The notes beneath the pieces were generated by a model. The model was not told where the DNA came from. It made no database searches and was given only the letters and a program-made list of their open reading frames with translations. This document shows, piece by piece, positions 4,237 to 60,227 of a stretch of DNA of 64,000 nucleotides. This DNA is from Candidatus Doudnabacteria bacterium RIFCSPHIGHO2_01_FULL_46_24. GTDB taxonomy: Bacteria; Patescibacteriota; Doudnabacteria; UBA920; O2-02-FULL-48-8. Both the position numbers and the translations under genes were made by a program. The stretch's first letter is position 1; the number at the start of each line of letters is the position of its first letter. The stretch spans positions 8,264 to 72,263 of the forward strand of contig MFEL01000018.1 of the NCBI GenBank assembly GCA_001777575.1. The letters run 5' to 3'.

Positions 4237-4453
4237 ATGGAACTTTCCTCCTTCCTCATGAGATGCGTTCAACCCTACTTACGAGCGCCAGGATCAAACG
4301 GAAAACCGTTTGGGCCTGAACTTATGGCTACTTGCACGCAATAGGAGGGATGCTGCATGCTTTCACCGCATCGCAAGTAGGATAGAAAACACCTGCTGTG
4401 CTATATTTTATAGGAAACAACATAGGATAGCAAAAATGCCAGAAAATGTCAAC

Positions 4454-4528
4454 CCCGTTAGAAACATGCTGTTTCAGGCGCTTTAAATTAAAAATTAAAC
4501 TGACATGTCGCACGAAGTTTCTAACGGG
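4454..4528. promoter_or_regulatory. inverted-repeat element copy A (CCCGTTAGAAAC ... GTTTCTAACGGG, 51-nt AT-rich spacer) spanning the dprA start
   Basis: Perfect 12-bp arms read directly; dprA ATG at 4505 lies in the spacer; related copies at 32627-32728 and 60101-60209. Confidence 0.6.
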
Positions 4529-5608
4529 ATCAATACCGAGAATAAAGTTTACGGCAATGCCCTCAATTCAATAGAAGAACTCGGGCCAGTCAGTTTGCTC
4601 AAACTGCTTAAGTTTTTCGGCAACTTCCAGAATGCCTGGCAAGCGGGCGTAACTGATCTGGCCAAAGCAGGCCTCGACCAAAAAAAGATTGATGCCATTC
4701 TAGCAAAACATCCAAGCCTGAAGCCGGAGCAATTGTGGCAGGAAACCCAAAGACTGGGCCTTGAGGCACTGCTTCTGGGAGAAAAAGATTATCCTAAACT
4801 TCTGGCCGAAATCCCCTCGCCGCCGCCGATCCTTTATGTCCGAGGAAACAAAAAGATTTTGAATGACAATCTGCTGGCGGTGGTGGGCAGCCGCAAAATG
4901 ACCGGCTACGGCCGGCGCACAGTAGAAGATCTCATTCCCCAGCTCCTAAACGCCGGCCTGGATGTGGTTTCGGGCCTGGCCTTCGGCGTAGATGCCTGCT
5001 CTTTGCAGACAACACTTTCTGCCGGCAGTGCACCCATTGCGGTACTTGCTTCCCCGCTTGACAACTCAAGCATTTCACCGAGAATCAATTACAATTTGGC
5101 CCAAAAAATCGTTCAGCAGGGTTGTATGATATCCGAATACGCTTTGGGATCTCAAGTCTACAAAACCAATTTTCCCCAGCGCAACCGGATCATTGCCGGC
5201 CTGAGCTTGGGAACGCTCGTAATTGAAGCCGACGAAAAAAGTGGCAGTCTGATTACCGCTAATTACGCGCTTGATTTCAACCGCGAGGTGTTTGCCGTTC
5301 CCGGCCCCATCTTTTCCGATGTCAGCCGCGGCACCAACGCCCTGATCAAAAAAGGAGCGGTTTTGGTGTCTTCAGCTGCGGACATTATCCAAGCGTTGAA
5401 CCTCGACGTGACCTTGCAGATGGAGCTGGATGAAAATTACCACGATGAAACCGGAATTCTGGATTTGCTTTCCGAGCCCAAACACATTGATGAGCTGATC
5501 CGGCAGCTAAAGCTGGACGCGCCCACGGTCAGCACGAACTTAACCATGCTGGAACTCAAAGGCCGGATCAAACATGTAGGCGGGGGCACTTATGCCAAGA
5601 TCCGTTAA
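4505..5608 (+). CDS. dprA: DNA processing protein DprA (Smf)
   Basis: Rossmann-like core LLAVVGSRKMTGYGRR...GLAFGVDACS, 367 aa. Confidence 0.88.
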   Translation: MSHEVSNGINTENKVYGNALNSIEELGPVSLLKLLKFFGNFQNAWQAGVTDLAKAGLDQKKIDAILAKHPSLKPEQLWQETQRLGLEALLLGEKDYPKLLAEIPSPPPILYVRGNKKILNDNLLAVVGSRKMTGYGRRTVEDLIPQLLNAGLDVVSGLAFGVDACSLQTTLSAGSAPIAVLASPLDNSSISPRINYNLAQKIVQQGCMISEYALGSQVYKTNFPQRNRIIAGLSLGTLVIEADEKSGSLITANYALDFNREVFAVPGPIFSDVSRGTNALIKKGAVLVSSAADIIQALNLDVTLQMELDENYHDETGILDLLSEPKHIDELIRQLKLDAPTVSTNLTMLELKGRIKHVGGGTYAKIR

Positions 5609-12740: not shown

Positions 12741-13383
12741 GAGGTAAATTACCTAAGCGTAATTTGCCGATCCTGATACGCTTAAGATTCCGGACGGTGT
12801 AGCCGAAAACTGCAAACATTTTTCGTATCTGCCGCTTCCAGCCTTCGTGAATGGTTAAATAAACTGTCTGGCCATCAACTCGAGCCTTGGCCGGCGCGGT
12901 CCTGCGTCCATCAAGCACCACCCCGGTTTTGATTTTCTCTAATCTCGAATTACTAATCTCTTTATCCAGGATCACTTCATATTCTTTTTCGTGCTCAGCG
13001 GAGGGATGAGTCAGGCTTTGTGTCAACTCCCCATCATTGGTCAAAAGCAGCAAGCCTTCGGTGTTGAAATCCAGCCGGCCTATTGGCCAGACTTTGTTAC
13101 GCAATTCCGCGGGCAGCAAATCATAAACCGTCCGCCGTTTCTGCGGATCATGCCGCGTGGTCATGTATCGCTTGGGCTTGTTCAAGGCAAGATATATCAG
13201 ACTGCTTACTGTTATCTGTTTACTGTTTACTTCAACTCTGTCTCTTTCGGGATCAATCTTAGTCCCCAAGACACGAACGACCTGGCCATTGACTTTGACT
13301 TTCCCCGCCACAATCAACTCTTCCGCGTGTCGGCGTGACGCCGCACCTGCTCGGGAAATGTATTTTTGAAGTCGCTCAAGCAT
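12700..13383 (-). CDS. rluB: rRNA pseudouridine synthase, RluB/RsuA family
   Basis: S4 domain MLERLQKYISRAGAASRR plus catalytic GRLDFNTEGLLLLTNDG. Confidence 0.85.
   Translation of the reverse strand: MLERLQKYISRAGAASRRHAEELIVAGKVKVNGQVVRVLGTKIDPERDRVEVNSKQITVSSLIYLALNKPKRYMTTRHDPQKRRTVYDLLPAELRNKVWPIGRLDFNTEGLLLLTNDGELTQSLTHPSAEHEKEYEVILDKEISNSRLEKIKTGVVLDGRRTAPAKARVDGQTVYLTIHEGWKRQIRKMFAVFGYTVRNLKRIRIGKLRLGNLPLGKHIFLEKNQIL
13202..13232. repeat. tandem AACAGTA-type heptamer array on the coding (minus) strand of rluB
   Basis: Reverse complement of ctgcttactgttatctgtttactgtttactt. Confidence 0.55.
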
Positions 13384-27431: not shown

Positions 27432-30317
<2,886 letters not shown>

Positions 30318-30719: not shown

Positions 30720-32576
30720 ATGCAAAAAAGCTTAACAGATAAAATCAAAGAACTTCCCAACCAACCCGGGGTCTATATTTTCAAAGACGCCAAGGGTTTG
30801 ATTTTATATGTCGGCAAGGCGATTAACCTGCACAACCGCGTGCGGTCGTACTTTCGGGAGAGGCATCCTCCTGGCAGAGCGCCAATCTTGGAGGATGCCC
30901 CTCCACGCATCCAGCTCATGATTTCTCAAATCGCTGATCTAGATTACACAATCACGGACAATGAGCTGGAGAGCCTGCTTTTGGAAAACAACTTTATCAA
31001 GCAGCTTAAACCCAAATACAATATCTTGATGCGGGATGATAAAAATTATCTGTTCATCAAGATTAACATCAAGGACGAAATTCCCACGATCGGCTATGAC
31101 CGGAAACCAAGTGATAAGAATGCCAGATATTTCGGGCCTTATACTTCCAGCATTGCCATCAAAGACAATCTGCGTCTGGTGCGCAAAATCTTTCCTTACT
31201 GCGCCAACAAAAAAATCACAGGCAAGCCTTGTTTTTATTTCCACATCGGCAAATGCCCGGGCGTGTGCGTGGGTAAAATTTCGCTGGCAGAGTATCGCCA
31301 AAACTACATCGGAAAAATTATCCAATTTTTGCAGGGCAAGCAATTGGAAATTCTCAAAAATCTAAAACTCCAAATGCAGGGATATGCGCGGAGTAAAATG
31401 TTTGAAAAAGCCGCCAAAGTCCGCGACCAAATTTATGCGCTTAACCGGGTGTTAGAACGACAAAAACTGGTCTATCCCAAAAAAGTTGACCAGGATGTAT
31501 TCAGCATCCATGTCGAAGCATCAATCGCCTGCGTCAATTTGTTTATAATCCGCGAAGGCAAGCTGATCAGGAAAGAAAATTTTATTCTGGAAAACACCAA
31601 GGGCGCTCAAGTTGCAAAAATCCTCTCGGAATTTTTGCCTAGATATTATTTGGAGGCCACAGATTGGCCGAGGGAGATTCTGGTGCCGGCCTTGGAGGGG
31701 CATCCTCCCAGACTGGCGCGCGGCGAGGAGGATGCCCCTCCACCAAAAATTCTCGTCCCCACCCGCGGGCAGAAACTCAAGCTCATCAAACTCGGCGAAC
31801 TAAACGCCAAGCAATTCCTGGAAGCTCAATCAGACAAACATCTGTTGGAGGAGGCTCGGCTGATGAGTGCTCTGAAAGAGCTGCAACGAGTCTTAAATCT
31901 CAAAAAATTGCCTGGCCGGATCGAAGCTTACGATATCTCCAACATCCAAGGCAGGCACGCGGTAGGCTCTATGGTCGTGTTTGACTATGGACATCCGAAA
32001 AAAGAAGATTACCGGCGATTTAAGATTAAACGCCAGACCGTGTCCGCCGAAGGCTCGCCGAAGGCGGATGACTTCGCGATGATGCGGGAAGTTCTCACTA
32101 GGCGCTTTGGAAAAACAATAACTGTTAACAATAACGATAACCGCTCATGGCCGCTGCCTGACCTCATTCTCATCGACGGTGGACGCGGCCAACTCAATGC
32201 CGCCCAATCCGTAATTCGTAATTCGCAATTCGTAATTCCCGCAATTGGCCTCGCCAAGCGCCTGGAAGAAATCTTCGTTCCCGGACAATCCAAATCTTTA
32301 ATCCTACAACCGAACTCAATAGCGCTATTCTTGTTACAAAGGATCCGCGATGAGGCCCACCGCTTCGCCGTCACTTACCACCGCAAACTCCGCTCAAAAG
32401 CAGCCAAGGCTTCGGCCCTGGACCAAATTCCAGGCATCGGAAATGCAAAAAAACGAAAAATCCTGGCTTATTTCGGATCTGTGGCTAAAATCCGCCAAGC
32501 TCCCTTGGGAGAACTTGCCCAAATCGTCGGCAACGCGCTGGCCGAAAAAATCAAAGCCAGCCTGCCTGACCGGTAG
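30720..32576 (+). CDS. uvrC: excinuclease ABC subunit C
   Basis: GIY-YIG start PGVYIFKDAKGLILYVGKA, UvrBC-binding region, RNaseH-like and HhH C-terminus; real start is ATG 30720 (TATAAT 8 nt upstream), not the track start 30549. Confidence 0.92.
   Translation: MQKSLTDKIKELPNQPGVYIFKDAKGLILYVGKAINLHNRVRSYFRERHPPGRAPILEDAPPRIQLMISQIADLDYTITDNELESLLLENNFIKQLKPKYNILMRDDKNYLFIKINIKDEIPTIGYDRKPSDKNARYFGPYTSSIAIKDNLRLVRKIFPYCANKKITGKPCFYFHIGKCPGVCVGKISLAEYRQNYIGKIIQFLQGKQLEILKNLKLQMQGYARSKMFEKAAKVRDQIYALNRVLERQKLVYPKKVDQDVFSIHVEASIACVNLFIIREGKLIRKENFILENTKGAQVAKILSEFLPRYYLEATDWPREILVPALEGHPPRLARGEEDAPPPKILVPTRGQKLKLIKLGELNAKQFLEAQSDKHLLEEARLMSALKELQRVLNLKKLPGRIEAYDISNIQGRHAVGSMVVFDYGHPKKEDYRRFKIKRQTVSAEGSPKADDFAMMREVLTRRFGKTITVNNNDNRSWPLPDLILIDGGRGQLNAAQSVIRNSQFVIPAIGLAKRLEEIFVPGQSKSLILQPNSIALFLLQRIRDEAHRFAVTYHRKLRSKAAKASALDQIPGIGNAKKRKILAYFGSVAKIRQAPLGELAQIVGNALAEKIKASLPDR
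30858..30905. repeat. 48-bp palindromic element in frame in uvrC, copy 1 (encodes ERHPPGRAPILEDAPP)
   Basis: GGAGAGGCATCCTCC-tggcagagcgccaatctt-GGAGGATGCCCCTCC. Confidence 0.75.
31695..31742. repeat. 48-bp palindromic element in frame in uvrC, copy 2 (encodes EGHPPRLARGEEDAPP)
   Basis: GGAGGGGCATCCTCC-N18-GGAGGATGCCCCTCC. Confidence 0.75.
32206..32240. repeat. tandem AATCCGT/AATTCGT/AATTCGC heptamer array in frame in uvrC
   Basis: aatccgtaattcgtaattcgcaattcgtaattccc encodes SVIRNSQFVIP. Confidence 0.65.
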
Positions 32577-32626
32577 CAGGCCTTTGACATATTCCAATAC
32601 TTTTGGCAAAATATCAAGGCTTATTC

Positions 32627-32728
32627 ATCCCGTTAGAAATTGATATAGCCAGTATTAATCGTAACGCAATATCTGACGAGGATCGAGAAATGGCAAGATA
32701 GCATAATTAACCAGTTTCTAAACGGGAT
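32627..32728. promoter_or_regulatory. inverted-repeat element copy B (ATCCCGTTAGAAAT ... GTTTCTAAACGGGAT) with right arm ending on the secG ATG
   Basis: The downstream arm reads tttctaaacgggATGaatc, so the secG start codon is within the arm. Confidence 0.6.
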
Positions 32729-32951
32729 GAATCTTAAAGATATTTTCACTTTCAGCCTGATTGGTGTCTCGGTGCTGCTGGTCATCGTCATTCTCCTTCA
32801 GCAGAAAGAGGGCGGGTTATCCACCGTCTTTGGCGGGGAGGGCACGGTTTACCGCCAAAAGCGAGGCTTGGCCAAAGGTTTGCATTATTTCACCGTTGTC
32901 TTGGCGGTGCTGTTCATCGCCTTAAGCATTATGGTACTGTTCATGCAATAA
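32727..32951 (+). CDS. secG: preprotein translocase subunit SecG
   Basis: Two TM helices with ILLQQKEGGLSTVFGG between them, 74 aa. Confidence 0.6.
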   Translation: MNLKDIFTFSLIGVSVLLVIVILLQQKEGGLSTVFGGEGTVYRQKRGLAKGLHYFTVVLAVLFIALSIMVLFMQ

Positions 32952-34921: not shown

Positions 34922-35008
34922 GGGCGTGTGGCGGAACTGGCATACGCGCACGCTTCAGGAGCGTGTGGGAGCAATCCCGTGAGAGTTCAAATCTCTCCAC
35001 GCCCACCA
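34922..35008 (+). tRNA. tRNA-Leu (anticodon CAG), type II with long variable arm
   Basis: Hand fold: acceptor GGGCGTG/CACGCCC, 3-bp D stem, anticodon loop TTCAGGA, variable hairpin GGGA-gcaa-TCCC, T-loop TTCAAAT, encoded CCA. Confidence 0.85.
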
Positions 35009-35116
35009 ACTGCTCATAACACGTCCCGCCAACGACGGGATGGGAGCAATCCCGTGAGAGTTCAAATCCTCTCGTGCCCACCAAAAAAACATAAAGCTGA
35101 AGCCTTATGTTTTTTT

Positions 35117-59592: not shown

Positions 59593-60102
59593 TTAATCCA
59601 CCCTTTCCGGCCCCTTGTCATAATAGGCCTCGATAAATTTAATCATAGCCAGTTCGTCAAACTGCGCAAAGGTCTGTAGACGCGTCCAGGCGCAAAAGGC
59701 AATCGGCGCTTCGTTGGTCTCTCTTGGCTCAATAATCACCTTGCGATACCGTTTGGTAAAATCTTGAAGCTTGTCAATCGTAGTTTGATCGACTGTCCCC
59801 GGCTTATAAGAAATCCAAATCCCGCCGTGCTCCAAGTTATGGATCAGCTGCTCGTCAGGTAGTGTCGATGAATACACGCCCCAAGCTGCCGGCTGCGGCC
59901 AGTGCCAACCCGAGGTCGGCGGGTTGGAATTATAGGCCGGATGATCGGTGGAGCCTTCAGTCAAATGCTCATTGCCCTGGTTTTCAAATGTCTGCCCAGG
60001 TAAATTCTCAGGCGCCTGCGCCTGCTTGGAAGCTTGGAACAACCAGAATCCGATGCCCAGAACTATAACAATGACGATAACGATAATAATAATATTTTTC
60101 AT
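59593..60102 (-). CDS. DUF3105-family membrane-anchored protein
   Basis: N-terminal TM and HNLEHG motif. Confidence 0.55.
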   Translation of the reverse strand: MKNIIIIVIVIVIVLGIGFWLFQASKQAQAPENLPGQTFENQGNEHLTEGSTDHPAYNSNPPTSGWHWPQPAAWGVYSSTLPDEQLIHNLEHGGIWISYKPGTVDQTTIDKLQDFTKRYRKVIIEPRETNEAPIAFCAWTRLQTFAQFDELAMIKFIEAYYDKGPERVD

Positions 60103-60209
60103 CCCGTTAGAAATAGTGATAGTTAATTAATAAGCTATTTTTATTATAATCATCTCGTTTTAGTATAATTTTGGCCATAAACTCAACTACGTAAAATTTC
60201 TAACGGGAT
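60101..60209. promoter_or_regulatory. inverted-repeat element copy C (ATCCCGTTAGAAAT ... ATTTCTAACGGGAT) whose left arm covers the DUF3105 start codon
   Basis: Minus-strand reading atttctaacgggATGaaaaat; 14-bp perfect arms, 81-nt AT-rich spacer. Confidence 0.6.
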
Positions 60210-60227
60210 TCATAGCTTGGGTATTAT

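Follow-up and report, generated by a model that had tools for sequence, protein, structure and literature searches.

The inverted repeat that ends on the start codon of secG (copy B) is best explained as one insertion of a small, non-coding, MITE-like foldback element, which would influence secG through the hairpin that its arms can form in the transcript; the probability of this reading is put at about 0.75. MITEs are short non-coding transposable elements with inverted ends. The family to which copy B belongs likewise comprises short non-coding sequences with terminal inverted repeats, has direct target-site duplications and is present or absent at orthologous sites, and the duplications together with the filled and empty sites suggest that the element is mobile. 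It is apparently undescribed, and as a family it shows a strong and unusual property, namely that it abuts start codons exactly.

Structure of the copy at the secG start

In the window, which here means the whole 64-kb stretch of DNA analysed, part of a Candidatus Doudnabacteria (Patescibacteria) genome recovered from groundwater at Rifle, the arms ATCCCGTTAGAAAT (32627-32640) and GTTTCTAAACGGGAT (32714-32728, with one extra A) were found where the earlier note had placed them, and the downstream arm ends, as reported there, on the secG ATG at 32727. These arms are separated by 73 nt (32641-32713) and not by the 81 nt given previously. The palindrome is real, but its extent had been understated: the stem comprises 20/21 nt with one bulged A and pairs 32623-32642 with 32712-32732. 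Pairing is perfect between ATTCATCCCGTT (32623-32634) and AACGGGATGAAT (32721-32732) and amounts to 90% for TTAGAAATTG against CAGTTTCTAA. Owing to this extended pairing, the entire secG ATG and codon 2 lie inside the stem. Folding also predicts a stable stem: as RNA, the segment 32620-32740 reaches -31 kcal/mol, compared with -18.7 +/- 3.4 for shuffled sequences (z = -3.7).

All parts of copy B are described on the plus strand. The gene-distal arm (32623..32642) contains the conserved terminus T-CCCGTTAGAAAT (32628-32640), the core of which recurs unchanged in the other two window copies (A and C) and in at least 120 loci elsewhere, and the outer flank ATTCA (32623-32627), which lengthens the palindrome. 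The interior, or foldback loop (32643..32711), is AT-rich and 69 nt long, and carries a degenerate, weak version of the inner box of the family, TAACGCAAT, at ~32662-32670 in the orientation of the gene. The gene-proximal arm (32712..32732) consists of CAGTTTCTAAACGGGA plus TGAAT and includes the bulged A. The last base of the copy is the A at 32727, which is also the first base of the secG ATG, while the TG is supplied by the flanking DNA. The secG gene itself (32727..32951, plus strand) is an ORF of 74 aa that matches Pfam PF03840 (E=8e-13). Its start, a possible weak point of the original observation, is correctly assigned, since there is an in-frame TGA at 32673-32675 and no in-frame ATG, GTG or TTG ahead of 32727; the start also aligns with that of SecG in four related genomes.

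The flanks of copy B, TTCA and TGAA, form an inverted rather than a direct duplication, as do those of 8 of the 122 copies analysed among the matches listed. The insertion footprint is therefore atypical, and for the same reason no decoy ATG is found upstream and the stem is six bases longer than usual, extending over AUGAAU. Copy B is a member of a Doudnabacteria subfamily: the hpf copies of loci L136 and L138 likewise have the extra-A variant TTTCTAAACGGG as their gene-proximal arm, and parts of the interior of copy B align with Doudnabacteria hpf copies and with copy C. Five independent assemblies (L001, L002, L003, L005 and L006) carry a copy B identical to that of the window and in one orientation. 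A sixth (L004) differs by a single C-to-T change in the distal arm, with the same orientation and with a G.U pair kept.

A sigma-70-like promoter of secG was predicted at 32584..32612 on the plus strand, with TTGACA, a 17-nt spacer and a TG-extended CAAAAT (TTGACA-17-TGGCAAAAT; 10/12 matches). The predicted transcription start, ~32619-32621, is immediately 5' of the element, and the promoter is upstream of both arms, not between them. Four related Doudnabacteria (L127-L130) have the same uvrA/uvrC/secG/SBP_bac_5 gene order and a promoter block TTGACA-N17-ctGGCAAtATA upstream of secG, with no arms; the secG leader in these relatives is 20-25 nt long and has no Shine-Dalgarno sequence. The secG site is thus occupied in the window and empty in L127-L130. 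Excising 32628-32727 in silico regenerates ...ttcATGAATCTT, and the excision product ...cttattcATGAATCTT is a plausible ancestral short secG leader. The metagenome collection gave no match to an empty-site allele of this species, but likewise none to the filled allele, represented by a 28-mer of the interior, so that the negative result is uninformative.

Copies in the window and in other genomes

The existence of a repeated family with copies A, B and C, proposed in the earlier note, is borne out by three inverted pairs that share a core. The 14-mer with up to three mismatches occurs 9 times in the window against 6.3 expected, which alone is not significant. The 11-nt core CCCGTTAGAAA with up to one mismatch was found 5 times, compared with 1.06 expected (1/100 shuffles), and CCGTTAGA 5 times, compared with 1.17 expected (0/100 shuffles). 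Together with the extra-A arm, the core matches make up exactly three inverted pairs in the 64 kb (4454/4518, 32629/32715 and 60103/60197), and no solo arm copies were detected in the window.

Copy A (4449..4533, plus strand, or 4452-4530 by narrower limits; arms 4453-4464 and 4518-4529) is flanked by a perfect duplication of TCAA (4449-4452 and 4530-4533), and its RNA fold has z = -3.2. The dprA ORF, identified as DprA by Pfam, has its ATG (4505) within this copy and reads through the arm as VSNG. This ATG is the first in-frame start, the ORF runs as ...EVSNG-I... across the arm (4505-4533), and an in-frame ATC stands at the exact place of the ATG in other copies. The N-terminus of DprA may be derived from the element, or the dprA start may be mis-called. 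Copy C (60098..60212, or 60101-60209 by narrower limits; arms 60102-60113 and 60197-60208; z = -4.6) has a perfect duplication of TTCA (60098-60101 and 60209-60212), and the minus-strand DUF3105 gene at 59593..60102 (Pfam match) has its ATG (60102) at the end of the arm. The interiors of the three window copies are largely different and only partly alignable, an uncommon state for a MITE family that has amplified recently.

When one genome per species was scanned for CCCGTTAGAAA-N53-83-TTTCTAACGGG, that is, with a gap of 53-83 nt, at least 120 loci matched, whereas chance alone would give about one (596 Gb x 31 gap lengths / 4^22). They span many lineages of Patescibacteria as well as Planctomycetota, Deltaproteobacteria/Thermodesulfobacteriota, Omnitrophota, Nitrospirota, KSB1 and others. 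The termini have the form R-Y-CCCGTTAGA(AA)...(TT)TCTAACGGG-R-Y, with inverted repeats of at least 12 bp. The size of the element ranges from 27 to ~400 bp and is typically ~100 bp, with no conserved ORF. Extra copies inside the matched loci have loops of 5 nt to more than 300 nt, the minimal versions being 27-31 bp long, and some copies carry compensatory arm variants (AGAAGT/ACTTCT and TTACAAAT/ATTTGTAA). More than two arms were found in 40 of the matches listed, and also in the window, which holds 3 copies in its 64 kb. The inner box, [AG]CGGG[AG], is a degenerate end of the proximal arm situated 5-20 nt inside the distal arm; among the matches listed, it is gene-oriented in 22 elements and reversed in 2, and its pairing with the distal arm could give an alternative helix.

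The Rfam search gave no match to the element, either at the gathering score or at E <= 10. Phage carriage was considered as a vehicle, and only 3 stretches of viral contigs carry the arm pair. No description of the element was found by sequence or keyword in the literature, coverage of which is incomplete, so that an earlier description is possible.

The flanks were compared in 122 copies from among the matches listed and follow the consensus R-[TNNA]-Y CCCG...CGGG R-[TNNA]-Y. In 86 of these 122 copies, the hexamers on the two sides share their middle dinucleotide in direct orientation, and in 8 it is inverted; shuffling the pairing of flanks gives 16.5 direct identities on average and 31 at most. 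The bases adjoining CCCG and CGGG (terminal Y:R) are complementary in 114 of the 122. Non-palindromic flanks such as CTCA/CTCA, TGGG/TGGG, CCCG/CCCG and TATG/TATG indicate that the duplication is direct and 4 bp long, and that it is not an extension of the inverted repeat. The target duplication is accordingly the 4 bp TNNA, and the preferred site is R-TNNA-Y.

Filled and empty sites were also found at hpf. The empty sites of L134, L135 and L137 read ATGAAT, while the filled sites of L136 and L138 read ATGAAT[CCCG...CGGG]ATGAAY; L059 is filled as well. The hpf/raiA gene, which encodes a ribosome hibernation factor and begins with ATGAAT, has the element at its start in L059, L118, L123, L136 and L138. 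Occupied hpf starts are thus seen across several distant Patescibacteria, and in 2 of 5 Doudnabacteria hpf loci picked irrespective of the element; the hpf start seems to be either a hot spot or the site of an old polymorphism. In L136 (1385-1420), the final 35 nt of the element (ttaactaatcattaTTTCTAAACGGGATGAAT) are present a second time, as a solo copy that directly abuts the distal arm upstream of the hpf element; this is probably a tandem duplication or the result of a second hit at the ATGAAT target that had been regenerated.

Neither a transposase nor an autonomous element with these termini was found in ~1 Mb of sequence flanking the matches listed. A transposase-encoding parent element with matching ends was likewise not encountered among the 746 ORFs of the 120 loci listed or between distant arm pairs, where the DNA encodes a sigma factor (L103) and a secreted protein in a 320-bp inverted duplication (L015). 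An all-against-all BLAST of the 746 ORFs revealed no family in more than 5 of the 120 loci, the top families being housekeeping ones. With no recurrent protein family and no transposase-like gene near its copies, the element is regarded as non-autonomous. In the metagenome-assembled genome DX4.bin27 (L015 2046-2369 and 4832-5155), the element lies within the 320-bp inverted duplication, which brackets the gene of a 686-aa secreted protein, and the "identical copies" there are therefore parts of a larger repeat, not independent insertions. A gene of an IS200-like Y1 transposase (PF01797) was also noticed in L128 (16303-16929), between rnj and a tRNA synthetase gene, with no arms beside it.

Association with start codons and alternative readings

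Among the matches listed, an ORF of at least 100 aa starts at offset 0, immediately after CGGG, in 42 of 233 element ends, compared with never more than 8 ends at any other offset from -45 to +60. Elements abutting a start account for 48 of 135 (36%), and 39 of the 44 ATG-flanked ends are starts of long ORFs, again among the matches listed. A null model comprising every R-TNNA-Y site in the same loci, with coding-sequence sites removed because of purifying selection and with crude ORF calls, predicts that ~4.6% of sites fall at starts, or 13% for ATGAAY; the excess at start codons could be due in part to selection rather than to targeting. In the matches listed, the end of the element opposite the gene nearly always has the duplicated ATGAA, and this upstream ATG is often preceded, at 6-7 nt, by a strong -10 hexamer, an arrangement like that of leaderless genes. 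At seven loci with C...G-ended elements, the upstream duplicate contains ATG and the gene-proximal codon is GTG, so it is the element that contributes the initial base of the start codon in use.

The abutted genes have no common function: 78 Pfam families were found among 55 proteins (matches listed), and the genes include clpP, ssb, pgk, fmt, rplA, rplM, dnaA, hrcA, hpf and epimerases. Elements also occur at gene ends and between convergent genes, and ORF stop codons cluster at element ends at distances of +1, +2 and -8, which fits TGAA and TAAA targets. In many window genes, among them those at 13383 (minus strand), 38028 (minus), 40265 (plus) and 58320 (minus), the ATG follows a TATAAT-like hexamer at a distance of 6-11 nt, and a Shine-Dalgarno sequence is lacking; by sequence they look leaderless or short-leadered, and a minority of genes has a clear GGAGG.

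No specific mechanism that would rescue expression of the gene behind the element could be supported. An internal promoter is not apparent, as sigma-70-like sites in the interiors number 15 in sense and 12 in antisense, and TAnnnT occurs at the junction of interior and arm in 33% of proximal and 33% of distal arms. Uniform coupling through an upstream ORF that begins at the upstream ATG does not fit either: the stops are scattered, with UAA in the arm in 7 of 43 cases, an ATGA overlap in 3 and an in-frame fusion in 4.

The alternative that survives best, though it is improbable, is that copy B is a purpose-built cis-regulatory RNA at secG, such as a thermosensor, a protein or ligand switch or an RNase III site, and that the similarity between loci reflects a shared trans-acting RNA-binding factor. 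The stable fold that sequesters the AUG and codon 2, the position of the promoter, which lets both arms be transcribed, the nearly constant orientation of the inner box with its possible pairing to the distal arm, and the retention of a G.U pair by the C-to-T variant in the distal arm would all agree with it. However, the same secG leader lacks the element in the four related genomes, target-site duplications flank other copies, and copies are also situated at gene ends and between convergent genes, beside genes without a shared function. No curated RNA family in Rfam matches the element, even at E <= 10. The isolated sense-strand mismatches, few in number, comprise 2 of the G.U type versus 4 of the A.C type and give no clear sign of selection on the stem as RNA.

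Less likely still is that the arms are paired operator half-sites at which a DNA-binding regulator would loop or bracket the promoter of secG, a reading that includes the promoter-embedded operator suggested in the earlier note. Identical arms do occur at three promoter-proximal places in the window, and their centre-to-centre distances of 64, 86.5 and 94 bp are close to whole helical turns. Yet the conserved promoter is outside the arm pair and is kept by relatives that have no such sites, and the interior of copy B offers only one minus-strand promoter-like site and, on the plus strand, a weak -10-like CATAAT (32702-32707) without a -35. Members of the family differ widely in the spacing of their arms (5 to more than 300 nt) and show no fixed geometry, no regulator gene recurs near the copies in the 120 loci listed, and direct target duplications are unexpected for operators. 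Operators of the LexA or CIRCE type were considered and set aside along with this reading, the arms being the ends of an insertion element that makes target-site duplications and is found beside unrelated genes in many phyla.

The least credible alternative is an inverton, with recombination at the arms inverting the spacer and so switching secG between on and off, since the AT-rich segment between inverted repeats beside a gene start and the minus-strand promoter-like site in it are outweighed by a 69-73-bp spacer (5 nt elsewhere) too short for recombinase synapsis, the single orientation in all six compared assemblies (L001-L006), the constant orientation of the inner box to the gene in 22 of 24 cases among the matches listed, and the lack of a recurrent invertase gene in the 120 loci listed.

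In the preferred reading, an insertion of a foldback element, the element entered a short secG leader without a Shine-Dalgarno sequence, right at the start codon. The consequences for secG would be as follows. Transcripts from the conserved upstream promoter would start a few bases ahead of the distal arm, include both arms and fold into a 20-bp hairpin of -31 kcal/mol that buries the AUG and codon 2. Translation of secG would then be damped, or would depend on opening or cleavage of the stem (e.g. by RNase III) or on starts inside the element. From this model we infer lowered or conditional translation of secG through the hairpin of copy B. It is most likely that the element is selfish DNA that is tolerated at secG and possibly exploited.

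Comparison with known systems and implications

The element resembles the Correia/NEMIS elements of Neisseria, RUP, ERIC and MITEAba12, which are also short and non-coding, with terminal inverted repeats, target-site duplications, many dispersed copies, filled/empty polymorphism and hairpins co-transcribed with neighbouring genes. The hairpins of Correia elements can be substrates of RNase III or carry promoters. Unlike in these MITEs, no parent insertion sequence or transposase was found for the element, its termini recur unchanged in several phyla although the interiors diverge even within one genome, its size varies from 27 to ~400 bp, and it is tied exactly to start codons, donating the first base of the codon. 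To our knowledge, no MITE family has been reported to abut start codons and to supply their first base.

The piggyBac end CCCTAGAAAG resembles the element core CCCGTTAGAAA, and the seamless loss of piggyBac is compatible with the clean empty hpf sites. The target duplication of piggyBac is TTAA (PMC7351741), and piggyBac and IS1380 ends begin CCC/GGG (PMC5381638); the ends of the element (CCC...) and its 4-bp TNNA duplication are compatible with these features, as a lead only. Unlike piggyBac, the element has targets beyond TTAA, and no piggyBac/IS1380 transposase was found near the copies listed.

A likeness to REPs and REPINs is also visible, these being small palindromic hairpins that are dispersed, mostly intergenic, often located at gene ends, widespread and old (PMC3733652). 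REPs have an unpaired GTAG/CGTC tag at one end, no target duplication and an association with RAYTs (PMC3733652). The assignment to REPs was rejected, because the fully paired termini of the element, which have no GTAG/CGTC tag, and its 4-bp direct repeats do not agree with it. Integron attC sites are imperfect palindromes of similar length, with GTTAGA/TCTAAC-like cores, sometimes an extrahelical base, and a position at gene boundaries. The polarity of attC is 5'-RYYYAAC...GTTRRRY-3', while the element reads 5'-GTTAGAA...TTCTAAC-3' on both strands, and this reversed polarity means that the element is not an attC site; cassette arrays and an integrase are also lacking.

Two further repeats were noticed in the window. 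A second, unrelated palindromic repeat of ~50 nt, TGGAGGGGCATCCTCC-loop-GGAGGATGCCCCTCCA, occurs at 29553-29602, 30856-30905 and 31693-31742, in frame inside uvrA (once) and uvrC (twice), where it adds peptides such as GRAPILEDAPPR. It resembles intragenic insertions of the REP/RPE type, which reportedly favour replication and repair genes (PMC3733652). Two occurrences of ATCCCGTGAGAGTT (at 34974 and 35049, separated by 75 nt) lie within 34922-35090, in tRNA-Leu (34922-35008) and just past it, and suggest a partial duplication of the 3' half of the tRNA gene.

A wider reading, held tentatively and with slightly less than an even chance, is that the copies represent an undescribed, cross-phylum family of mobile foldback elements that homes to first codons and may move by a hairpin- or single-strand-based mechanism rather than through a looped transpososome. 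The 27-31-bp versions seem too short for a classical transpososome of looped double-stranded DNA, and a mechanism working on hairpins or single strands is a possible substitute. Such an element would prefer leaderless and short-leader genes and insert after base 5 of the coding sequence; its terminal purine would rebuild the start codon, changing ATG to GTG if the element ends in G, and a decoy start codon would be left upstream. The element would then amount to a portable 5' leader with a hairpin that rewires translation initiation of essential genes.

For secG alone, the finding is a modest, lineage-specific insertion that probably lowers or conditions translation, and the larger interest lies in the family. 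The conserved 12-14-nt termini provide a simple marker for annotating the insertions. They can help to mend start-codon calls, as several ORF callers would extend or shift starts (e.g. dprA), and they mark true gene starts in uncultured lineages. If the association with starts is due to targeting, the family would be a case of a bacterial mobile element that chooses transcription or translation starts and repairs the codon that it splits. This would give selfish DNA a way to persist in compact genomes, such as those of Patescibacteria (~1 Mb), while sparing essential genes, and would offer a natural experiment on Shine-Dalgarno-less and leaderless translation behind a 100-nt hairpin and a decoy AUG.
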